From sequence record MZ065353.1: a stretch of DNA of 64,000 nt. The stretch is one strand, 5' to 3'. Of this stretch, positions 1,738-34,147 are shown piece by piece. Numbering within the stretch: the first letter of the stretch is position 1; every line of letters starts with the position of its first letter. This DNA is from Escherichia virus KFS-EC3. The notes below the pieces were generated by a model that worked only from the letters and a program-made list of their open reading frames with translations, was not told where the DNA came from and ran no database searches. Both the position numbers and the translations under genes were made by a program.

Positions 1738-1820
1738 CATACAAGTAATATAAATCTATACTTAGGAAAAATAGATGATTCTAGGTCCTATAAATTCATT
1801 AAAAATTTTTTCACAAAACT

Positions 1821-1850
1821 GTTTACATCCCTGTTCTTCCATGGTACTAT
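1821..1850 (+). promoter_or_regulatory. early (sigma70-type) promoter inside PeSL-like cassette
   Basis: TTTACA-N17-TACTAT; same cassette recurs at 29632, 30139, 33441, 50716. Confidence 0.5.
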
Positions 1851-1878
1851 ACAACTATCAACTACGGAGGAACACAAA

Positions 1879-2130
1879 ATGAAAAACATTCAAACTAATT
1901 TTATTCAAAATTTAAAAGTTGTTAATGCAGAAAAAGCTAATAAACTCTTTAAAGTTAAAGAATTCGAAAATGAAGGTAATACTTATGGTATTATAGAACA
2001 AAATGGAATGGTGACTGGATTAGAAATTTATAATGGCAAAGGAAAATTTCAGTCACAGCCAATTTCTGTTATGGGTGTAAGAAAAGGAATTAAAACTGAA
2101 GATGCTTTAAAATTATTTGTTAAGTTTTAA
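1879..2130 (+). CDS. hypothetical protein (83 aa), cassette cargo ORF
   Basis: ATG 7 nt after SD GGAGG in conserved leader; ORF-track frame 1696..2130 trimmed to this ATG. Confidence 0.5.
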   Translation: MKNIQTNFIQNLKVVNAEKANKLFKVKEFENEGNTYGIIEQNGMVTGLEIYNGKGKFQSQPISVMGVRKGIKTEDALKLFVKF

Positions 2131-3676: not shown

Positions 3677-4308
3677 ATGTGCCACATGTTTATAAGTATA
3701 AACATCCTAAAACTAAAAAGTGGTATATAGGAAGTCATGATGGTCACAACCCGAATTATGATGGTTCGGGTGTAGTTTGGCAACATGCTAAAAAGAAATA
3801 TGGAATAAAATCCTTTAATAAAGAAATATTATATGAAGGACCAATGTTTAGACAGGTTGAAGAAATTATTTTAACTTGTTTAGATGCTGCTAATTGTCCG
3901 GATTCATATAATTTAAAGAATGAAGCATGGGGAGGAAGTTTTCCAGGCAAATTAAATGGAATGTACGGTAAAAAACTATCTCCAGAAGAAAGATATAAGT
4001 GCGGAAATGCCTTTCGTGGAATCAAGCGTCCTGATCATTCTAAAAGAATGAAAGGCGAAGGTAATCCAATGTATGGTAAAAATGAGCAGGCATATGGAAT
4101 TATAAATCGAGCCAAGGAAAATTCTGGTAAAACTTATGAAGAAATTTTTGGCGTAGAAAAAGCTAAAATAATTAAAGAAACGATGTCTAAAAATCGTAAA
4201 GGAAAACCTCATAATTTGATAGAAAAAATATGTCCGCATTGCGGACTAAAAGGACGTGGGCCAAATATGACAAGATACCATTTTGACAAATGTAAGGCAC
4301 TTAAATGA
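3667..4308 (+). CDS. GIY-YIG homing endonuclease-like protein (Seg-type) with NUMOD3-like repeats
   Basis: VYKYKHPKTKKWYIGSH...YDGSG motif; repeated G-K/R-x-S/N modules; C-terminal CPHC...C; overlaps 42 stop and downstream start. Confidence 0.75.
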   Translation: MEVNVPHVYKYKHPKTKKWYIGSHDGHNPNYDGSGVVWQHAKKKYGIKSFNKEILYEGPMFRQVEEIILTCLDAANCPDSYNLKNEAWGGSFPGKLNGMYGKKLSPEERYKCGNAFRGIKRPDHSKRMKGEGNPMYGKNEQAYGIINRAKENSGKTYEEIFGVEKAKIIKETMSKNRKGKPHNLIEKICPHCGLKGRGPNMTRYHFDKCKALK

Positions 4309-20250: not shown

Positions 20251-20408
20251 AAAGTTGTTTACTTCCTCGGTTAGTTATGGTATTATAACACCATAGCTAC
20301 TGAGGATAATAAAATGAAAATTTATCGTGTTGAACTTCTGAACGTTGTTCATGCAGGTGATTTTAGCGTAGTACCTCGTAGTGCAGTGGTAGCTATTTTA
20401 AATTAATA

Positions 20409-25405: not shown

Positions 25406-27583
25406 ATGATTATCACCACTGAAAAAGAAACAATTCTTGGTAATGGTTCTAAATCAAAAGCATTTAGCATCACAGCGTCTCCTAAAGTATTTAAAATTCT
25501 ATCATCTGATTTGTATACAAACAAGATTCGCGCAGTAGTTCGTGAATTGATTACTAATATGATTGATGCCCATGCTCTTAATGGAAATCCTGAAAAATTT
25601 ATCATACAAGTTCCAGGACGATTAGATCCGCGATTTGTTTGCCGAGATTTTGGTCCAGGTATGAGCGATTTTGATATTCAGGGTGATGATAATTCTCCTG
25701 GGTTGTATAATTCATACTTTAGTTCATCTAAGGCTGAATCTAACGATTTCATTGGTGGATTTGGTTTAGGTTCTAAATCTCCGTTTAGTTATACTGATAC
25801 GTTCAGTATTACTTCGTACCATAAAGGTGAAATTCGCGGTTATGTAGCTTATATGGATGGTGATGGTCCACAGATTAAACCTACATTCGTAAAAGAAATG
25901 GGTCCAGACGATAAAACTGGTATTGAAATCGTAGTTCCAGTTGAAGAAAAAGACTTTAGAAATTTTGCTTATGAAGTTTCTTATATCATGCGACCATTCA
26001 AAGATTTGGCTATCATTAATGGTCTTGACCGTGAAATTGATTATTTTCCGGATTTTGATGATTATTATGGCGTAAATCCAGAAAGATACTGGCCAGATCG
26101 TGGTGGATTGTATGCTATCTATGGTGGTATTGTTTATCCTATTGATGGTGTTATTAGAGACCGTAACTGGTTAAGCATTCGCAATGAAGTGAATTATATT
26201 AAGTTTCCAATGGGTTCGTTGGATATTGCTCCATCGCGTGAAGCGCTTTCATTAGATGATCGTACTCGTAAAAATATTATTGAGCGTGTTAAAGAACTCA
26301 GTGAGCAGGCATTTAATGAAGATGTAAAACGATTTAAAGAATCTACATCTCCTCGTCATACATACCGTGAATTGATGAAGATGGGATATTCTGCTCGAGA
26401 TTATATGATTAGTAATTCGGTCAAATTCACGACTAAAAATCTGTCATATAAGAAGATGCAGAGCATGTTTGAACCTGACAGTAAGTTATGTAATGCAGGA
26501 GTTGTGTATGAAGTAAATCTTGACCCTCGACTGAAACGCATTAAGCAAAGCCATGAAACTTCAGCCGTTGCATCAAGTTATCGTCTGTTTGGTATTAATG
26601 CAACAAAAATTAATATCGTTATTGATAATATTAAAAATCGTGTTAATATTGTCCGTGGATTAGCCCATGCGTTAGATGATAAAGAATTTAATAACACTTT
26701 AAATATTCACCATAATGAACGTCTTCTGTTTATTAATCCAGAAGTAGAATCGCAAATTGATTTACTTCCTGATATTATAGCAATGTTTGAAAGTGATGAA
26801 GTTAACATTCATTATTTGTCAGAAATTGAAGCTTTAGTTAAAAGCTATATTCCGAAGGTAGTTAAAAGTAAAGCTCCTCGTCCTAAAGCTGCCACAGCAT
26901 TTAAGTTTGAAATTAAAGATGGACGGTGGGAAAAAGAGGAGTTATTTACTCTCACATCAGAAGCAGATGAAATTACTGGTTATGTAGCATACATGCATCG
27001 CTCTGACATTTTCTCTATGGATGGTACTACATCTCTTTGTAATCCATCTACGAGTATTTTGATTCGTATGGCTAATCTTATTGGCATTAATGAATTTTAT
27101 GTTATTCGTCCGCTTTTACAGAAAAAGGTAAAAGAACTCGGTCAGTGCCAATGTATTTTTGAAACTCTGCGTGATTTATATGTAGATGCTTTTGATGATG
27201 TAGATTATGATAAGTATGTAGGATATTCAAGTTCAGCTCAACGATATATTGATAAAATTATTAAGTATCCTGAACTAGATTTTATGATGAAGTACTTCAG
27301 TATAGATGATGTTTCTGAAGAATATACTCGCCTTGGTAATATGGTTAGTTCATTGCGAGGTGTATATTTCAACGGTGGAAAAGATACCATCGGTCATGAT
27401 ATTTGGACAGTAACTAATCTCTTTGATGAATTGTCACGTAATGCTTCAAAAAACAGTGATAAAATGGTTGCTGAGTTTACCAAGAAATTCCGTATTGTTT
27501 CTGACTTCATCGGATATCGCAGCTCTTTAAGTGATGATGAAGTTTCCCAAATCGCTAAAACTATGAAGGCCCTTGCGGCCTAA
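25406..27583 (+). CDS. rIIA: rIIA membrane-associated protein
   Basis: 725 aa, matches T4 rIIA length; synteny with rIIB. Confidence 0.95.
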
Positions 27584-27594
27584 TAAGGAAAATT

Positions 27595-28533
27595 ATGTAC
27601 AATATTAAATGCCTGACCAAAAACGAACAAGCTGAAATTGTTAAATTGTATTCAAGCGGTAATTATACTCAGCAGGAATTGGCTGATTGGCAAGGTGTAT
27701 CGGTTGACACAATCCGCCGTGTTTTGAAAAATGCCGAAGAAGCTGGTCGTTCTAAAGTTACTATTAGTGGTGACATTACAGTTAAAGTTAAGAGCGATGC
27801 AGTTATTGCTCCAGTTGCTAAATCTGACATTATTTGGAATGCATCTAAAAAATTCATTTCAATTACTGTTGATGGTGTAACTTATAACGCAACTCCTAAT
27901 ACTCATTCAAACTTCCAGGAAATTCTTAATCTGCTTGTTGCAGATAAACTGGAAGAAGCAGCACAAAAAATTAATGTTCGCCGTGCTGTTGAAAAATATA
28001 TTTCCGGCGATGTTCGAATTGAAGGTGGAAGTTTGTTCTATCAAAATATCGAATTGCGATCTGGTTTAGTTGATCGTATTCTTGATTCGATGGAAAAAGG
28101 TGAAAATTTTGAATTTTATTTTCCGTTCTTGGAAAATCTGTTGGAAAACCCAAGCCAAAAAGCGGTGTCTCGACTCTTTGATTTCTTGGTAGCAAATGAT
28201 ATTGAAATTACAGAAGATGGCCACTTCTATGCTTGGAAAGTAGTTCGCAGTAATTACTTCGACTGCCATTCAAATACTTTTGATAACAGTCCGGGTAAAG
28301 TAGTTAAAATGCCACGTACTCGCGTGAATGACGACGATACACAAACTTGTTCTCGTGGTTTGCATGTGTGTTCTAAATCTTATATTCGTCACTTTGGTAG
28401 TTCAACTAGTCGAGTCGTAAAAGTTAAAGTACACCCTCGCGATGTAGTATCAATTCCAATTGATTACAATGATGCTAAAATGCGTACCTGCCAATACGAA
28501 GTAGTTGAAGACGTTACTGAACAATTCAAATAA
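27595..28533 (+). CDS. rIIB: rIIB protein
   Basis: 312 aa, matches T4 rIIB length. Confidence 0.95.
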   Translation: MYNIKCLTKNEQAEIVKLYSSGNYTQQELADWQGVSVDTIRRVLKNAEEAGRSKVTISGDITVKVKSDAVIAPVAKSDIIWNASKKFISITVDGVTYNATPNTHSNFQEILNLLVADKLEEAAQKINVRRAVEKYISGDVRIEGGSLFYQNIELRSGLVDRILDSMEKGENFEFYFPFLENLLENPSQKAVSRLFDFLVANDIEITEDGHFYAWKVVRSNYFDCHSNTFDNSPGKVVKMPRTRVNDDDTQTCSRGLHVCSKSYIRHFGSSTSRVVKVKVHPRDVVSIPIDYNDAKMRTCQYEVVEDVTEQFK

Positions 28534-28564
28534 GGGCTTCGGCCCTTAACTATAAAGGAAAATT

Positions 28565-28759
28565 ATGTTAGGTTATCAAGCACGAGTAAAAGAAGAATAC
28601 GATCAGCTAATGCTCAAAATTAATGCGTTGAGCAAATTTTTAGAAAGCACAAAGTTTTTAACAGTTAATGAAGTTGAACAAGAATTACTGCTTTCACAGT
28701 TTATCTCAATGAAATCTTATGCTGACTGCTTAGAGAAAAGAATTGCGCAATTCAAATAA
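28565..28759 (+). CDS. hypothetical protein (64 aa) flanked by duplicated hairpin segment
   Basis: ORF with SD AAGGAAAATT; about 45-bp imperfect direct repeat on both sides. Confidence 0.45.
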   Translation: MLGYQARVKEEYDQLMLKINALSKFLESTKFLTVNEVEQELLLSQFISMKSYADCLEKRIAQFK

Positions 28760-28762
28760 TTA

Positions 28763-28785
28763 AAGGGCTTCGGCCCTTTTGTTTT
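28763..28785 (+). terminator. Rho-independent terminator
   Basis: AAAGGGC-TTCG-GCCCTTT hairpin plus TGTTTT; second copy of hairpin at 28532-28547. Confidence 0.55.
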
Positions 28786-28795
28786 AAGGGAAATT

Positions 28796-29125
28796 ATGAT
28801 TTATTATATGAATATCAGTGATTCCGATATAAAAGAGATTAATCTACACGGAAATCATCACGCTAACATCGTGTACTGTAACAAATTTGAGTTTGGTCAT
28901 GAAAATTTAGGATTTCTTTATTGCAATGATGTTATAGTCATGGATAAAAAGAAACTCGATGAACTTGATCGTGAATCTTTAGATGAAAATGATCGAATTT
29001 ATTATGGTACTCTTAAAGTATATAACGCTTATCTCAGTGGTAAAAAGGAAAGTCTAAATGCAGAAAACGAATCCGGGTTTACAGAGACTGTTTCAGATTC
29101 CGACATTTACCCTATCGAACAATGA
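28796..29125 (+). CDS. hypothetical protein (109 aa)
   Basis: ORF with SD AAGGGAAATT. Confidence 0.45.
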   Translation: MIYYMNISDSDIKEINLHGNHHANIVYCNKFEFGHENLGFLYCNDVIVMDKKKLDELDRESLDENDRIYYGTLKVYNAYLSGKKESLNAENESGFTETVSDSDIYPIEQ

Positions 29126-29615
29126 TTTGACTGGTGAAATGAAGATCAAAATTGCTGATACTGCAAGATACTCTTTAAAACAAAATCCAAACCAAGATAA
29201 AGCAGAAGTCATCGAAAGATGCCGTATCGCTGTGTATGCAGAGTTTTTTGTAGCAGATTGGCTGAGCGGATATGTTAACAAAGGTCAAGAGGATGTTAAT
29301 GACCCGTATACATACGCATGGGATGTATTGGCACATCCAAGATACTGTGGGCTTCGAGTAGAAGTCAAGACACATCAAACTGACTCACGCTGGATTTCTG
29401 TAACAACAGGATGCAGCGGAGAGTATCCATACGGTTCTGGAATAAATCTAGGGCCCATTCTGAATCATCAAGTCGCAGACTGTATAATTATATTCAACAC
29501 TAAAGAAATTCATCCAGGTGTCATCCAGTACACTCCGAAGTTCATTGGTGACAGAGAAGACCTTCGTAAGGTTGTAAGAAAAAGTAACTACAACGGATGG
29601 TATCTTTCCATTTAA
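29058..29615 (+). CDS. denB: endonuclease IV DenB
   Basis: 185 aa, same length and position as T4 DenB. Confidence 0.85.
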   Translation: MQKTNPGLQRLFQIPTFTLSNNDLTGEMKIKIADTARYSLKQNPNQDKAEVIERCRIAVYAEFFVADWLSGYVNKGQEDVNDPYTYAWDVLAHPRYCGLRVEVKTHQTDSRWISVTTGCSGEYPYGSGINLGPILNHQVADCIIIFNTKEIHPGVIQYTPKFIGDREDLRKVVRKSNYNGWYLSI

Positions 29616-29631
29616 AAATTTTCACAAAACG

Positions 29632-29661
29632 GTTTACATACCACAAGGACTGTGGTATTAT
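29632..29661 (+). promoter_or_regulatory. early promoter inside PeSL-like cassette
   Basis: TTTACA-N17-TATTAT followed by conserved leader ACAACTATCAACTACGGAGGAACAGAAA. Confidence 0.5.
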
Positions 29662-29689
29662 ACAACTATCAACTACGGAGGAACAGAAA

Positions 29690-29953
29690 ATGAAATTTAA
29701 GTTCTTTTACGTTAAACATAAAATTACCGGTGAATTTATTGCATTTACGACTTCAACTACAGATGAAGGAGATATTTTTACTGCAGTATTTTTATCAAAA
29801 TGGGAATCAGATCAACCTTACTTATCATCACGTGAAGATCTTCAACAATTAGTTAATGGAGAATATAATGATTCATGGTCATATTTAGTCCATGATTGTG
29901 TTAAAAAGGCAATAAAACAAAAACGCTTGGAAATCGTTGAGATTGAACTATGA
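29690..29953 (+). CDS. hypothetical protein (87 aa), cassette cargo ORF
   Basis: ATG 7 nt after leader SD GGAGG. Confidence 0.5.
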   Translation: MKFKFFYVKHKITGEFIAFTTSTTDEGDIFTAVFLSKWESDQPYLSSREDLQQLVNGEYNDSWSYLVHDCVKKAIKQKRLEIVEIEL

Positions 29954-30138
29954 GTTCATTATGGTGGTGTTTCGTTTGGTTAATTAGTATTCCTTTAATT
30001 TGTTTAGCATTTACTTTTGTGATGAGGTTATTATGAAAATTTTGAATTCTGTACTTATTGCTTGTGCGTGGTGGGTTGTGCAAGTTTCAGCGGTAGTAGT
30101 TGGTATTCACATTTATTACGAATATTTTTAAAAAAGTT

Positions 30139-30168
30139 GTTTACAAGACTGTTCCTCTGTGGTACTAT
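30139..30168 (+). promoter_or_regulatory. early promoter inside PeSL-like cassette
   Basis: TTTACA-N17-TACTAT plus identical leader. Confidence 0.5.
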
Positions 30169-30196
30169 ACAACTATCAACTACGGAGGAACAGAAA

Positions 30197-30310
30197 ATGA
30201 AAAAGATTGTTAAAGCTATATGGAATGTAATTATAATTTTAGTTGTTTTGAGTATATTCCCAATTGTTTTAATGATTGATGTATTAAACGCTTACTTTGG
30301 ATTTATGTGA
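30197..30310 (+). CDS. small hydrophobic peptide (37 aa), cassette cargo ORF
   Basis: ATG after leader SD; single TM-like segment. Confidence 0.35.
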   Translation: MKKIVKAIWNVIIILVVLSIFPIVLMIDVLNAYFGFM

Positions 30311-30317
30311 GGAAAAT

Positions 30318-30515
30318 ATGAAGCGTAAACGTAGTGCTTTTACATTTATTGAATGGTTTTTCGATAATATTTTTCCGGCTTTATTCATTTTCATGCTGAT
30401 TTTCGCCTTAGGTTCAGTTGTAGTTGGAATTTATTTAATGGCGGTTGTCGGAATGGATATTCACCAAAACGGTTTAAAATCTGTAGTTGAAACAATTTGG
30501 AATGGTGTAAAATGA
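30318..30515 (+). CDS. small membrane protein (65 aa)
   Basis: ATG after SD GAGGAAAAT; two hydrophobic segments. Confidence 0.4.
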   Translation: MKRKRSAFTFIEWFFDNIFPALFIFMLIFALGSVVVGIYLMAVVGMDIHQNGLKSVVETIWNGVK

Positions 30516-30630
30516 TGAATTTGTTGAGTGGTTGGTTTTATATTCTTATGTTTTACATTGGTGCAAATTTCCCGTATTGGATGGGATGGTCAACAACTGC
30601 ATTTGGATTTTATACTCCTTGAGGTGAATT

Positions 30631-30846
30631 ATGAAAATCTTTAAAGATGTAAAAGTTGGTGAAATTTTTTGCTTGGATAGCGGTGATCAGTTAATTCGCA
30701 TTTCACCTCTTAAGAGTACCAGCGAGAAAATGACAGTTAACGCTACTTTAGTAAATAACAGTAATGAACGTTTCTGTATTGAAAATGATACTGAAACTTA
30801 TACCGTAGAAGAGTTCTGGGAATTGAGCGTCGACTGCGACGATTAA
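30631..30846 (+). CDS. hypothetical protein (71 aa)
   Basis: ORF with SD GAGGTGAATT. Confidence 0.45.
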   Translation: MKIFKDVKVGEIFCLDSGDQLIRISPLKSTSEKMTVNATLVNNSNERFCIENDTETYTVEEFWELSVDCDD

Positions 30847-30906
30847 TTTATCGGCCGTGTGTATTCATGCGGCCTTGGAGTAGAAAATAATTTAGAGGAA
30901 ATTAAT

Positions 30907-31362
30907 ATGAAATACATGACTTCTAGTGATTTACGTGATGCAGGCGCTACTATTATTGGTACAATCAAGAATGGCGAATGGTTTTTGGGAACTCCGCATA
31001 AAGACATTTTATCTAAACCTGGATTTTACTTTTTAGTGAGTAAATTCGGTGGTCCATTTGGTTGTCCATGCGTATCTGCACGATTTTATGTAGGTAATCA
31101 GCGTTCTAAGCAAGGATTCAGCGCAGTTCTAAGTCATATTCGTCAACGTCGGTCTCAGCTTGCGCGTACTATTGCAAATAACAATGTTCCATACGCAGTA
31201 TTTTATCTGCCTGCTTCTAAGATGAAACCTCTGACGACTGGATTCGGAAAAGGTCAGTTAGCTTTAGCGTTTACTCGTAATCATCATTCTGAGTATCAAA
31301 CGCTTGAAGAAATGAACCGTATGTTGGCTGATAACTTTAAATTTGTTTTGCAGGCATACTAA
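30907..31362 (+). CDS. ndd: nucleoid disruption protein Ndd
   Basis: 151 aa from internal ATG after SD GAGGAAATTAAT; matches T4 Ndd as recalled. Confidence 0.85.
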
Positions 31363-31535
31363 TGAAAGCTCTATTTGTAATGGGTTACCTATTAGTTTTA
31401 GCCTTATTCACATTGACTGGAATCTTTACGGCTTTAGGTCTACCTCTTAATGATAATGTGGCTGTCGTGATGTGTGTAGGTGGCGGATTTATCTGTTTTG
31501 AACGTTTATGCAAAATGTGTGGTGTGTATGAGTAA
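31362..31535 (+). CDS. small membrane protein (57 aa)
   Basis: ATGA overlap with ndd stop; two TM-like segments. Confidence 0.35.
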
Positions 31536-31911: not shown

Positions 31912-33240
31912 ATGCAACTGAATAATCGCGATTTAAAAAGTATCATTGATAATGAAGCATTGGCTTATGCTATGTACACGGTTGAAAATCGTGCTATCCC
32001 AAATATGATTGATGGATTTAAGCCAGTTCAACGATTTGTTATTGCTCGAGCTCTTGATTTGGCACGAGGAAATAAAGATAAGTTTCACAAACTCGCTTCT
32101 ATTGCAGGTGGTGTAGCAGACCTTGGATATCATCATGGTGAAAACTCTGCACAAGACGCAGGTGCTTTGATGGCTAATACTTGGAATAATAACTTTCCTC
32201 TGTTAGATGGTCAAGGAAACTTTGGTTCTCGTACCGTTCAAAAAGCAGCGGCAAGTCGTTATATTTTTGCTCGTGTAAGTAAAAATTTCTATAACGTATA
32301 TAAAGATACTGAATATGCTCCGGTACATCAAGATAAAGAACACATTCCGCCTGCTTTCTATTTGCCTATTATTCCTACTGTTCTTCTTAACGGTGTTTCC
32401 GGTATTGCAACTGGTTATGCAACTTACATTCTTCCTCATAGTGTTTCTTCTGTCAAGAAAGCTGTATTACAAGCTCTTCAAGGAAAGAAAGTAACTAAAC
32501 CGAAGGTAGAATTCCCAGAATTTCGCGGTGAAGTCGTTGAAATTGACGGTCAATATGAAATTCGTGGAACATATAAGTTTACTTCACGAACTCAAATGCA
32601 TATCACTGAGATTCCATATAAGTATGATCGTGAAACTTATGTGAGTAAAATCTTAGACCCGCTTGAAGATAAAGGCTTCATTACGTGGGATGATGCTTGT
32701 GGCGAGCATGGTTTTGGCTTCAAGATTAAATTCCGCAAAGAATATTCTTTGAGCGATAATGAAGAAGAACGTCATGCAAAAATTATGAAAGACTTCGGGT
32801 TGATTGAGCGTCGTTCTCAGAATATTACGGTTATTAATGAGAAAGGAAAACTACAAGTTTACGATAACGTAGTTGATTTAATTAAAGACTTTGTTGAAGT
32901 TCGTAAAACTTATGTCCAAAAACGAATTGATAATAAAATTAAAGAAACTGAGTCAGCTTTTCGTTTAGCTTTTGCCAAGGCACATTTCATTAAGAAAGTA
33001 ATTTCAGGTGAAATTGTTGTGCAGGGTAAAACTCGCAAAGAACTGACCGAAGAACTTTCTAAAATTGATATGTATTCTTCTTATGTTGATAAACTAGTTG
33101 GAATGAATATTTTTCATATGACTTCAGATGAAGCAAAGAAACTTGCTGAAGAAGCTAAAGCCAAAAAAGAAGAAAACGAATATTGGAAAACTACCGATGT
33201 AGTTACAGAATACACCAAAGATTTAGAGGAAATCAAATGA
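31912..33240 (+). CDS. 52: DNA topoisomerase II medium subunit gp52 (GyrA-like)
   Basis: 442 aa; matches T4 gp52 length. Confidence 0.95.
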   Translation: MQLNNRDLKSIIDNEALAYAMYTVENRAIPNMIDGFKPVQRFVIARALDLARGNKDKFHKLASIAGGVADLGYHHGENSAQDAGALMANTWNNNFPLLDGQGNFGSRTVQKAAASRYIFARVSKNFYNVYKDTEYAPVHQDKEHIPPAFYLPIIPTVLLNGVSGIATGYATYILPHSVSSVKKAVLQALQGKKVTKPKVEFPEFRGEVVEIDGQYEIRGTYKFTSRTQMHITEIPYKYDRETYVSKILDPLEDKGFITWDDACGEHGFGFKIKFRKEYSLSDNEEERHAKIMKDFGLIERRSQNITVINEKGKLQVYDNVVDLIKDFVEVRKTYVQKRIDNKIKETESAFRLAFAKAHFIKKVISGEIVVQGKTRKELTEELSKIDMYSSYVDKLVGMNIFHMTSDEAKKLAEEAKAKKEENEYWKTTDVVTEYTKDLEEIK

Positions 33241-33440: not shown

Positions 33441-33470
33441 GTTTACAACCAAAGCATTCCATGGTACTAT
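33441..33470 (+). promoter_or_regulatory. early promoter (PeSL-like cassette, variant leader) upstream of motA
   Basis: TTTACA-N17-TACTAT; leader ACAACTATCAACTACTGATACAG. Confidence 0.5.
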
Positions 33471-33511
33471 ACAACTATCAACTACTGATACAGAATTACG
33501 GAGATTAGAAA

Positions 33512-34147
33512 ATGTCTAAAGTAACTTACATCATCAAAGCTTCTAACGATGTTCTGAATGAAAAAACTGCCGCAATTTTAATTACCATTGCTAAGAAAGA
33601 TTTCATTACAGCTGCAGAAGTTCGTGAGGTGCATCCAGATTTAGGTAACGCAGTAGTTAATAGTAATATTGGGGTATTGATTAAAAAAGGCCTGGTGGAG
33701 AAATCTGGTGATGGATTAATCATTACAGGCGAAGCTCAGGATATTATTTCAAATGCGGCAACTTTATATGCACAGGAAAATGCTCCTGAACTACTGAAAA
33801 AACGAGCAACTCGTAAAGCTCGTGAGATTACTTCCGATATGGAAGAAGATAAAGACTTCATGTTAAAACTTTTAGATGAAAATGGATTTGTTCTTAAAAA
33901 GGTTGAAACTTATCGCAGTAACTATCTCGCTATTTTAGAAAAACGCACTCATGGAATTCGTAATTTTGAAATTAACAACAATGGAAATATGCGAATTTTT
34001 GGATACAAAATGATGGAACATCATATTCAGAAATTTACTGACATCGGTATGTCATGCAAAATCGCTAAAAATGGTAATGTGTATCTTGACATTAAACGCT
34101 CAGCAGAAAACATTGAAGCTGTAATCACTGTAGCATCTGAACTGTGA
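33512..34147 (+). CDS. motA: middle transcription activator MotA
   Basis: 211 aa, matches T4 MotA length. Confidence 0.9.
   Translation: MSKVTYIIKASNDVLNEKTAAILITIAKKDFITAAEVREVHPDLGNAVVNSNIGVLIKKGLVEKSGDGLIITGEAQDIISNAATLYAQENAPELLKKRATRKAREITSDMEEDKDFMLKLLDENGFVLKKVETYRSNYLAILEKRTHGIRNFEINNNGNMRIFGYKMMEHHIQKFTDIGMSCKIAKNGNVYLDIKRSAENIEAVITVASEL

Follow-up and report, generated by a model that had tools for sequence, protein, structure and literature searches.

Early promoter cassettes and conserved small genes between denB and ndd of a Tequatrovirus

The stretch analysed here (the window) comprises 64,000 nucleotides of Escherichia virus KFS-EC3 (MZ065353.1), a Tequatrovirus. Annotation comparison places the small genes between denB and ndd in the same order as in T4: ndd.6, ndd.5, ndd.4, ndd.3/2a, ndd.2 and ndd.1. 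They are preceded by ORF87, a gene absent from T4. The interval is very probably part of the early-expressed, non-essential "region D" (rIIB to gene 52), with two sigma-70 cassettes driving its small genes. The genes are as follows.

29058..29615, + strand: denB (endonuclease IV), named from relatives' annotation at 96-98% identity; upstream edge of the interval.
29690..29953, + strand: ORF87, 87 aa, soluble and acidic, allele A; phrog_2390 (E=7e-42), PST ORF268 family.
29950..30036, + strand: ndd.6 homologue, 28 aa, a single hydrophobic helix; phrog_8851 (E=1e-16), KD 2.44; its ATG overlaps the ORF87 stop (ATGA).
30033..30131, + strand: ndd.5 homologue, 32 aa, hydrophobic; phrog_5011 (E=2e-25), KD 2.29; its ATG overlaps the ndd.6 stop (ATGA).
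30197..30310, + strand: ndd.4 homologue, 37 aa, N-terminal KK..K and then one predicted TM helix; phrog_3098 (E=7e-21), KD 3.06.
30318..30515, + strand: ndd.3/ndd.2a, a single 65-aa gene; Pfam DUF7248 (E=4e-20), KRKR N-terminus, one long predicted TM segment, conserved C-terminal GLKSVVETIWNG.
30512..30622, + strand: ndd.2 homologue, 36 aa, aromatic-rich, no charged residue; phrog_4135 (E=2e-24); its ATG overlaps the upstream stop.
30631..30846, + strand: ndd.1 homologue, 71 aa, acidic and soluble; phrog_2183 (E=2e-37).
30907..31362, + strand: ndd (nucleoid disruption protein), named from relatives' annotation at 91-94% identity; downstream edge of the interval.

The short ORFs listed in an earlier note on this DNA all exist, with the last of them moved by one base (30512-30622 rather than 30513-30623). 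The first ATG of ndd.2 is ATA in three relatives, so its start may instead be 30515. Family membership (PHROG E-values from 1e-16 to 3e-30) and T4 synteny agree for ndd.2 to ndd.6, and the ndd.1 to ndd.6 proteins are 89-100% identical to those of T4. The split of ndd.3 and ndd.2a occurs in the T4 reference record only, and resequenced T4 is annotated with an intact ORF; the two are one gene. Four of the five hydrophobic peptides (28-65 aa) are predicted to form a single transmembrane helix: the best 19-residue Kyte-Doolittle window reaches 2.3-3.1 in the 28-, 32-, 37- and 65-aa products. The earlier description of the short ORFs as hydrophobic stands; the 36-aa ndd.2 product is lower at 1.17, but it contains no charged residue.

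ORF87 had been called soluble, in agreement with the composition of its product (GRAVY -0.37, pI 5.3). Homologues occur in 671 phage records, 113 of them at 90% identity or more and 550 below 60%. No Pfam match was found for it, and its best AF2 model (pLDDT 90.9) had no significant match in the PDB. The allele in this phage is A, which shares about 53% identity with PST ORF268, and ORF68/ORF269 is missing; in T4 both ORF87 and ORF68 are absent, apart from an 8-codon remnant.

The sequences upstream of ORF87 and of ndd.4 are built alike, and a related cassette lies elsewhere in the window.

29612..29661, + strand: early promoter P1, downstream of denB; A/T-rich UP-like tract, -35 GTTTAC (29632-29637), 17-bp spacer, TGG, -10 TATTAT (29656-29661).
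29638..29658, + strand: 8-bp hairpin in the P1 spacer, arms ATACCACA and TGTGGTAT, clear of the SD; seen in RNA folds.
29650..29695, + strand: repeat copy 1; spacer end, -10, initial transcribed region, leader type I (ACGGAGGAACAGAAA), ATGAAA.
30120..30168, + strand: early promoter P2; A/T tract, -35 GTTTAC (30139-30144), 17-bp spacer, TGG, -10 TACTAT (30163-30168).
30149..30193, + strand: 15-bp helix, an inverted repeat; spacer arm 30149-30163 (anti-SD) pairs with leader and SD (30179-30193).
30157..30202, + strand: repeat copy 2; leader type I, GGAGG, ATGAAA.
1799..1884, + strand: third cassette, downstream of gene 43; same UP tract, promoter, anti-SD spacer and leader I, with the 46-nt copy at 1839-1884.

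The earlier note had reported two cassette copies about 500 bp apart, and this is borne out by a 46-nt direct repeat, identical at 45 of 46 positions and spaced 507 bp start to start. A search of the window with its 34-nt core returned those two copies and a third with one mismatch (1848-1881), against a chance expectation of 0.00 from 100 dinucleotide-preserving shuffles. Each copy takes in the 3' portion of a T4-type sigma-70 early promoter and the leader behind it, with GGAGG-N7-ATGAAA. The copies had also been said to launch the 87-aa ORF (29690-29953) and the 37-aa peptide (30197-30310); promoter, leader, SD and start codon are present in both cases. A consensus scan placed TTTACA-17-TATTAT at 29633-29661 for P1 (10/12) and TTTACA-17-TACTAT at 30140-30168 for P2 (9/12), each with TG before the -10. 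GTTTACA occurs at both and aligns with other early promoters of the window, and A+T is 77-87% in the 30 nt upstream. Both promoters are kept in all 14 genomes of our comparison panel, for which an IMG/VR search with DenB gave 8 loci and the rest were therefore taken from GenBank records.

P1 and P2 thus each carry the -35, spacer, TGn, -10 and UP-like tract of a T4-type sigma-70 early promoter. T4 early (Pe) promoters are UP/-35/TGn/-10 promoters with additional consensus regions (Hinton 2010, PMC2988021). The likeness covers the UP element, -35, TGn, -10 and extra conserved positions, and the T4 orthologues are early. Nothing essential differs, except that identity here extends beyond the promoter consensus, through the leader to the second codon. 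There is nothing unusual about the two repeats, which are strong early promoters of a T4-like phage and of a type already published as PeSL cassettes.

From this layout, P1 would launch ORF87, ndd.6 and ndd.5, and P2 would launch ndd.4, ndd.3/2a, ndd.2 and ndd.1, probably continuing into ndd. ORF87, ndd.6 and ndd.5 follow one another with ATGA stop/start overlaps, which makes translational coupling of the two peptides probable. A scan of the + strand from 29616 to 30827 found no terminator-like site; the P1 and P2 units appear to be separated not by a terminator but by the anti-SD in the P2 spacer.

That anti-SD forms one arm of the 15-bp helix, whose 15-nt loop contains both the -10 and the predicted start site. 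The helix itself is worth about -22 kcal/mol. Its 101-nt context folds at -24.2 kcal/mol (z -4.0), and the promoter-to-ATG segment has a z of -6.2. In the in silico fold all four SD bases are paired, with partners upstream of the predicted start, and RNA beginning after the P2 -10 is unstructured (dG 0). Across the 14 genomes, 14 or 15 of the 15 pairs are kept and all four variable interior positions are wobble-compatible. No double compensatory change was seen among them, and both arms are doubly constrained (as promoter spacer with TGn, and as SD), so conservation alone is no proof of an RNA function. An Rfam scan of 28500-31500 returned no RNA family, only a single sub-threshold chance match. 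The spacer:SD pairing recurs at 1821 and 20257 of the window and upstream of nrdC.8 in other phages. It is not universal, since P1 here has the same leader without an anti-SD partner.

The folds suggest that read-through RNA from P1 would form the helix over the ndd.4 ribosome-binding site, while RNA from P2 would start inside the loop and carry a free, unstructured leader. We infer that the helix blocks ndd.4 translation on read-through RNA, and that ndd.4 is translated mainly from transcripts of its own promoter. Helices that mask ribosome-binding sites in long transcripts are known in T4 for e, soc, 49 and I-TevI (Uzan and Miller 2010, PMC3014915). There, as here, the SD lies in a helix whose 5' arm is upstream of an internal promoter, and only the shorter transcript has a free ribosome-binding site. 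In the T4 cases masking affects the early read-through RNA, and translation proceeds from RNA of a late promoter. Here P1 and P2 are both early-type sigma-70 promoters, so cassette 2 would work like this class without being a member of the early/late switch. A further difference is that the 5' arm is the promoter's own spacer, and the function here is predicted from folds.

The authors of the PeSL concept read such stem-loops as terminators or attenuators (PMC2839356), and one PeSL stem-loop did lower downstream reporter expression in vivo (PMC2839356). The cassette-2 helix is strong, and on this view it would act as a transcriptional attenuator or terminator, or else as an mRNA-stabilising 3' hairpin for the upstream unit, rather than as a translational mask. 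We consider this unlikely. No U tract comes after the helix, the sequence there being AAAAUGAAAAAG, and the terminator scan did not flag it; the 3' arm coincides exactly with the SD region, and two other promoters of the window show the same pairing. On sequence, an intrinsic terminator is improbable for either stem-loop, in cassette 1 or cassette 2: neither stem has a U tract after it, and the terminator scan gave no hit at these sites.

Returning to masking of the SD, we would tentatively extend it, at somewhat less than even confidence, to a subset of Tequatrovirus early cassettes. These would be self-insulating units, in which a spacer anti-SD silences the start codon on upstream RNA and translation proceeds only from the cassette's own promoter.

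The candidates are the cassettes preceding ndd.4 and nrdC.8, the one that follows gene 43, and the one at 20257 of the window.

The leaders also differ in their relation to RegB. Leader II contains a perfect GGAGRAYARAA RegB site and leader I matches it at 8 of 11 positions. It is possible, judging from these matches, that a swap from leader II to leader I alters the speed of RegB shut-off of the gene.

The cassettes belong to a dispersed family, which is the published PeSL family. The 64-nt cassette at 30139-30202 occurs at 1129 places in 504 phage records, and it is identical (63/63) to the cassette upstream of nrdC.8 in several phages. An extended module is common to five promoters of the window, and members of the family lie upstream of ndd.4 and nrdC.8, downstream of gene 43 and denB, and at motA. 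The third cassette drives an 83-aa ORF (1879-2130) that is missing in T4; there, the gene 43-imm.1 gap contains this promoter as well, but followed by leader II and then immediately by imm.1.

As in the PeSL descriptions (Arbiol et al. 2010, PMC2839356; PMC4122927), the cassettes here combine an A/T tract, a sigma-70-like promoter (TTTACW-N17-TAYWAT in PST/T4), a stem-loop, an SD and an ATG. PeSL stem-loops lie between -35 and -10 or overlap the -10; here the stem is in the spacer in cassette 1 and spans the -10 in cassettes 2 and 3. PeSLs are repeated round the genome beside ORFs that differ among close relatives, with exchanges between -10 and SD/ATG. Repetition and dispersal are evident here from the three cores in the window and the wide occurrence of the cassette in phage records. 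Indels adjoin cassette 1 (the ORF87/ORF68 slot) and cassette 3 (ORF83 relative to T4), and the flanks of cassette 2 are constant. Unlike in those papers, there are no intrinsic-terminator features here, and the 3' arm of the cassette-2 stem is the SD itself; translation and the ribosome are not mentioned in either (PMC2839356, PMC4122927).

The close identity of the two cassettes is peculiar to this lineage. Leader I occurs at the P1 site in the window and in KMB26 only, other relatives having leader II or I'. The two cassettes share an exact run of up to 37 nt here, against no more than 9-12 nt in 10 of 13 relatives. Long identity is thus a lineage-specific state, derived by gene conversion, rather than a trace left by an insertion. 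Leaders and cores have been exchanged between loci in patches, leaving mosaics of leaders and spacers. The near-identity seen here would have arisen by patchy ectopic gene conversion in the shared -10-to-leader core.

The earlier note described the denB-ndd interval as hypervariable and its content as apparently cassette-delivered. Variability is real but narrow. In the panel it is confined to a single slot between the denB promoter and ndd.6, found in five states (empty, ORF87-A, ORF87-B, ORF68, and ORF68 with ORF87-B). The ndd.6-ndd.5 and ndd.4-ndd.2 modules are constant across the 14 genomes, and ndd.6 to ndd.2 are fixed in about 493 genomes. Delivery by cassettes has a precedent at this very locus, the ndd region of T4 and PST being a published example of PeSL shuffling (Comeau et al. 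2014, PMC4122927, Fig. 6A legend), but the hydrophobic ORFs are constant and the readable indel junctions lie elsewhere. These are at 7-8-nt repeats around start codons (AAATGAAA) and not between the two cassettes, nor inside cassettes as in the PeSL papers. T4 lost its 87-aa gene by an exact 237-bp deletion between two AAATGAAA 8-mers.

A stronger version of cassette delivery would have the 507-bp ORF87-ndd.6-ndd.5 unit enter and leave as a mini-circle, by recombination between the 46-nt direct repeats that bracket it. Such circles, from crossovers between -10 and SD/ATG, have been shown in RB49/phi1 (PMC2839356), the T4/PST difference here has been ascribed to that mechanism (PMC4122927), and, compared with T4, the ORF immediately after cassette 1 and the one immediately after cassette 3 are both indels. 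PST keeps ndd.6 and ndd.5, however, which makes the published "exchange" look more like a plain indel. With a cut-off of 90% identity, ndd.6-ndd.5 is found in about 493 phage records and ndd.4-ndd.2 in about 492. The modules co-occur, and these counts, an indirect test, give no evident natural cassette-to-cassette deletion variant. Together with the derived, lineage-specific identity of the cassettes, the exact deletions between AAATGAAA 8-mers in the T4 and RB6/F25 forms (inside and at the start of ORF87-B), and the position of ORF68, which lies 8 nt from ORF87 and lacks its own cassette, this makes the circle improbable.

Instead, ORFs would enter and leave the slot after P1 via 7-8-nt homologies at translation starts. 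Loss of a slot gene by start-codon microhomology would preserve translational coupling to ndd.6. The two ORF87 alleles, A and B, are about 53% identical, with dS 0.82 against 0.32 in denB and dN/dS 0.48. On these values, positive selection in situ is a less likely source of the dimorphism than old alleles moved by recombination.

Comparative genomics of the interval had been proposed as a check, with lack of conservation pointing to non-coding spacer, and the small ORFs proved to be conserved in nearly all 14 genomes. They are intact in 13 or 14 of them, except that ndd.2 is intact in at least 10, a figure that rises to 13 with the second ATG as its start. In the close panel, pN/pS in frame is 0.22 for ndd.6 (1.0-2.0 out of frame), 0.11 for ndd.5, 0.11 for ndd.3/2a, 0.13 for ndd.2 and 0.10 for ndd.1 (a range of 0.10-0.22), against at least 0.8 in shifted frames. 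ndd.4 has a pN/pS of 0.54 and no frame contrast in the close panel, with its ORF intact in 14/14. Beside a distant DenB of 45% identity (locus L010), homologues of ndd.6, ndd.4, ndd.2 and ndd.3/2a are present, ndd.4 being 56% identical there. The small ORFs are real genes by these measures of sequence constraint, and purifying selection is clear for five of six.

In T4, transcripts of ndd.2 to ndd.6 are classed as early, and the Ndd.1 and Ndd proteins are found early (PMC9697503 Table S2). Ndd.2 to Ndd.6 were not detected in T4 proteomics (PMC9697503 Table S2), as expected for tiny hydrophobic peptides, though the result does not count in favour of their translation. The reading of the ORFs as fortuitous frames in an A/T-rich stretch of non-coding spacer is hardly credible and already contradicted by the conservation data: their very short length, the lack of detection by mass spectrometry in T4 and the substitution pattern of ndd.4 are outweighed by intact frames, in-frame selection in five of six, a PHROG family for every ORF, homologues beside the distant DenB, tight stop/start overlaps and SD sequences on most.

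In the literature on ndd.1 to ndd.6 we found no function for the products, and nothing relevant on anti-defence links of the region. The sa-delta-9 deletion, which spans region D, abolishes the stimulation of phospholipid synthesis after infection (PMC6071114). As five tiny hydrophobic ORFs in a conserved Tequatrovirus backbone, the peptides are reasonable candidates for the membrane/phospholipid phenotype of region-D deletions.

Taken as a whole, the outcome is known biology with small refinements. The promoters, the PeSL concept, the small ndd genes and the variability of the locus have all been published before, and the arrangement is shared by about 500 sequenced genomes. The cassette family evolves by ectopic gene conversion, and the spacer-to-SD helix in some cassettes suggests a simple, testable form of translational insulation. 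If self-insulation is true, it would replace, for these cassettes, the published terminator view of PeSL stem-loops. It would also account for the spread of a promoter-leader unit to new loci in the absence of terminators, with expression that is still independent of context.

The window is a segment of a Tequatrovirus genome in the orientation opposite to that of the T4 map. Megablast matched 29000-31400 to 534 phage records; coverage reaches 80% or more in 489 of them, for the most part at 90-95% identity. ORFs were named from the T4 annotation and tblastn, and each was assigned a PHROG family (E-values 1e-16 to 7e-42). The earlier note had listed six ORFs between denB and ndd. All are present, but the last had been placed one base off. 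The features are as follows, with in-frame pN/pS where calculated.

36-1703, gene 43 C-terminus
25406-27583, rIIA
27595-28533, rIIB
29058-29615, denB, pN/pS 0.04
29690-29953, ORF87 (87 aa; phrog_2390), without T4 counterpart; the PST equivalent is ORF268
29950-30036, ndd.6 homologue, pN/pS 0.22
30033-30131, ndd.5 homologue, pN/pS 0.11
30197-30310, ndd.4 homologue, pN/pS 0.54 at low diversity, with no contrast between frames
30318-30515, fused ndd.3 and ndd.2a (Pfam DUF7248), pN/pS 0.11
30512-30622, ndd.2 homologue, pN/pS 0.13
30631-30846, ndd.1 homologue, pN/pS 0.10
30907-31362, ndd, pN/pS 0.11
31912-33240, gene 52

The two cassette copies reported about 500 bp apart are borne out as 46-nt repeats (29650-29695 and 30157-30202; 45/46 identical, spacing 507 bp). 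A search with the 34-nt core found both copies and a third at 1848-1881, with a chance expectation of 0.00. Each copy takes in the 3′ part of what looks like a promoter, in which an A/T tract is followed by GTTTACA, 17 bp of spacer, TGG and either TATTAT or TACTAT. Beyond the -10 comes a leader of roughly 22 nt (ACAACTATCAACTACGGAGGAACAGAAA), which leads into ATGAAA. Judged by sequence, these putative promoters are of the T4 early type, which is built from UP, -35, TGn and -10 elements plus extra consensus regions (PMC2988021). An extended module, aaaattttttcacaaaacNGTTTACA...GGTACTATACAACTATC, is common to five window promoters, at 1821, 29632, 30139, 33441 (the motA promoter) and 50716. The third cassette, 3′ of gene 43 (window 1799-2130), drives an 83-aa ORF (phrog_18567) that T4 lacks.

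The small ORFs behave as genes. The comparison panel consisted of 14 genomes, namely the window, T4, Lutter, KMB26, ime09, F25, RB6, PST, JK23 and five IMG/VR contigs. Most small ORFs are uninterrupted in 13-14 of them, and pN/pS in shifted frames is about 0.8 or above. A distant T4-like contig whose DenB is only 45% identical (L010) holds protein-level homologues of ndd.4, ndd.6, ndd.2 and ndd.3/2a in its denB-ndd interval. The earlier note had held that ORFs unconserved even in the closest relatives would imply non-coding spacer; because the ORFs are conserved among these relatives, that reading is set aside. ndd.2 is intact in 10/14 genomes, or 13/14 if its second ATG is the start. Its first ATG reads ATA in three relatives (window 30512-30517, compared with JK23, ime09 and loci L003 and L006), so translation may in fact begin at the second, 30515. 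Codon 8 of JK23 ndd.2 is a stop. The ndd.2-ndd.6 transcripts of T4 are of the early class with their proteins undetected, and T4 ndd.1 and Ndd are early both as transcript and as protein (PMC9697503 Table S2).

Two annotations near these genes deserve comment. The T4 reference (NC_000866) splits one 65-aa gene into ndd.3 and ndd.2a (4049-4129 and 3933-4055) by a 1-nt difference at codon 2-3. The ORF is undivided in all 13 other genomes and annotated at its full 198 nt in resequenced T4 (MT984581; 731-928 of the fetched locus), so the split is probably a reference error or a strain mutation. A 109-aa DUF7418 ORF (window 28796-29125) is a second presence/absence polymorphism near denB. The window, Lutter, L003 and L006 carry it at full length, and so, probably, do ime09 and JK23, whose fetched loci end within its 5′ part; only short remnants are left in T4, PST, KMB26, RB6, F25 and loci L004, L005 and L007. 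It overlaps the first 68 nt of annotated denB (start 29058), so DenB probably starts at Met28 (29139), the annotated start in Lutter and ime09.

The interval had been described as hypervariable. One slot does vary, from the denB promoter to ndd.6, but the rest is constant within Tequatrovirus: the ndd.6-ndd.5 segment occurs in 493 records and ndd.4-ndd.2 in 492, and identity is 90% or higher in nearly all of them. The slot is empty in T4, holds ORF87 allele A in the window, KMB26 and Lutter, allele B (52-54% amino acid identity to A) in the five IMG/VR contigs, a second accessory ORF (ORF68) alone in RB6 and F25, and ORF68 plus ORF87-B in PST, ime09 and JK23. ORF87 homologues occur in 671 records, one per genome, 113 at 90% identity or more (A-like) and 550 below 60%. 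Protein identity between alleles A and B is about 53% and DNA identity 66%, whereas the flanking DNA is 93-96% identical; dS is 0.82 and dN 0.40 between the ORF87 alleles, against 0.32 and 0.016 for neighbouring denB. These values favour old alleles that recombination has moved around and that are less tightly constrained. Alleles and leaders co-occur in several combinations.

The T4 denB-ndd.6 gap, GGAGAATAAAATGAAAATCGCTGAGATTGAACTATGA, is exactly the product expected from deletion between two AAATGAAA 8-mers lying 237 bp apart in an allele-B genome, one where ORF87 begins, the second six codons ahead of its stop. RB6 and F25 carry the identical deletion in a background with ORF68. What remains, a mini-ORF of 8 codons (MKIAEIEL), has a Shine-Dalgarno sequence (SD) of its own and a stop that overlaps the ndd.6 ATG as before. 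Since the tail residues E84, E86 and L87 are invariant among ORF87 homologues down to 44% identity, the tail is part of ORF87, and it is T4 that has undergone deletion. ORF68 lies 8 nt from ORF87 without its own cassette, and TAAAATG is common to its junctions.

The promoter 3′ of denB is constant in 14/14 genomes, followed by leader I (ACGGAGGAACAGAAAATG) in the window and KMB26, leader I′ in Lutter and L006, or leader II (TGATACGGATTTGGAGAATAAAATG) in the remaining ten. Leaders I and II likewise alternate 3′ of gene 43: leader I precedes the 83-aa ORF in the window, and T4 has the same promoter, including a spacer of anti-SD sequence, with leader II adjoining imm.1. After the -10, the ndd.4 cassette reads TATTACCCTATC in most genomes and TATACAACTATC in the window, Lutter and L006. 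Cassettes 1 and 2 share an uninterrupted match of at most 37 nt in the window, against 30 in KMB26, 20 in Lutter, 16 in L006 and 9-12 in the ten remaining genomes. Cassette 2 of the window (64 nt), found at 1129 places across 504 records, agrees at 63/63 positions with the cassette that precedes nrdC.8 in PP01, ime09 and other phages. These run lengths and the nrdC.8 identity show the window's two copies to be derived, the outcome of patchy ectopic conversion in the shared -10-to-leader core. The proposal of cassette-delivered content is right about the repeats, but their near-identity arose by conversion and the slot indels whose junctions can be read fall at short repeats. The same cassette precedes an nrdC.8-like gene in two 142-148 kb records, PV654520 ("Pseudomonas phage vB_PSGBLB0006") and PQ510734 (phage A6-6). 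Both look like Tequatrovirus sequence, and the Pseudomonas host label is doubtful.

The strong RegB site consensus is GGAGRAYARAA (PMC3014915). Leader II (GGAGAATAAAA; T4 leaders in L001 and L019) matches all 11 nt, and leader I of the three window cassettes matches 8/11; it is speculation that leader type affects RegB sensitivity. The motA leader (promoter and leader, window 33441-33517) matches 10/11.

The cassettes combine an A/T tract, a strong sigma-70 promoter, a stem-loop, an SD and an ATG, the arrangement that Arbiol et al. 2010 (PMC2839356) and Comeau et al. 2014 (PMC4122927) named the promoter-early stem-loop (PeSL) cassette of T4-type phages. Crossovers of PeSL mini-circles map to the same -10-to-leader zone (PMC2839356). 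For PST/T4, Comeau et al. 2014 gives the PeSL consensus TTTACW-N17-TAYWAT, and it offers the denB-ndd region as an example, with T4 ndd.4/.5 exchanged for PST ORF268/269. PST (NC_027404, reverse strand, between ORF268 and Ndd.4) keeps ndd.6 and ndd.5 intact though unannotated, so the exchange, as presented there, appears to be a plain insertion or deletion and looks like an annotation effect.

The PeSL papers take the stems as attenuators and never mention translation. Neither cassette has a U tract 3′ of its stem, and a terminator scan of 29616-30827 found no terminator-like site on the + strand. Cassette 1 has an 8-bp hairpin within the spacer, clear of the SD. The cassette 2 spacer (30149-30163) and the leader with its SD (30179-30193) pair to form a 15-bp helix, whose loop holds the -10 and the predicted start site. 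Folding of the surrounding 101 nt gives -24.2 kcal/mol (z -4.0), and RNA starting past the -10 has a dG of 0. In 14/14 genomes 14-15 of the 15 pairs are kept. Four variable interior positions show only Watson-Crick/G-U changes, and no double compensatory change occurs among the 14 genomes. All 4 SD bases pair with partners 5′ of the start at three of 15 early-promoter-like window sites (1821, 20257, 30139), and three more (20409, 51426, 62893) have strong stems across the -10 with the SD free. At 20257-20319 the spacer pairs with the downstream gene's SD (dG -23.7, z -5.6). The ndd promoter of L010 (3095-3170) carries a stem across its -10 (GAGGAC...GTCCTC), which suggests that promoter-embedded stems are widespread outside Tequatrovirus. 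Ribosome-binding sites are masked in the long T4 transcripts of e, soc, 49 and I-TevI (PMC3014915), and by analogy we infer that such masking may operate here, between two early promoters.

Region D, from rIIB to 52, is dispensable under laboratory conditions. Deletion sa-delta-9 takes out 52.1, ac, stp, ndd, ndd.1-6 and denB and abolishes the post-infection stimulation of phospholipid synthesis (PMC6071114, PMC12115623). Four of the five small products called hydrophobic reach a 19-residue Kyte-Doolittle maximum of 2.3-3.1; the fifth reaches 1.17 and has no charged residue. Our best guess is that the five peptides enter the inner membrane early and aid envelope or lipid remodelling, or exclusion. 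ORF87 is acidic and, as had been proposed, soluble by its sequence properties; family, fold and literature searches gave no lead to its role.

Overall, the observation in the earlier note was confirmed and its interpretation was right in part only. T4 early promoters, PeSL cassettes and the ndd.1-6 genes are already known biology. The refinements are modest and testable: coding constraint on the mini-genes, deletion at microhomology, conversion mosaics and a helix between promoter spacer and SD.
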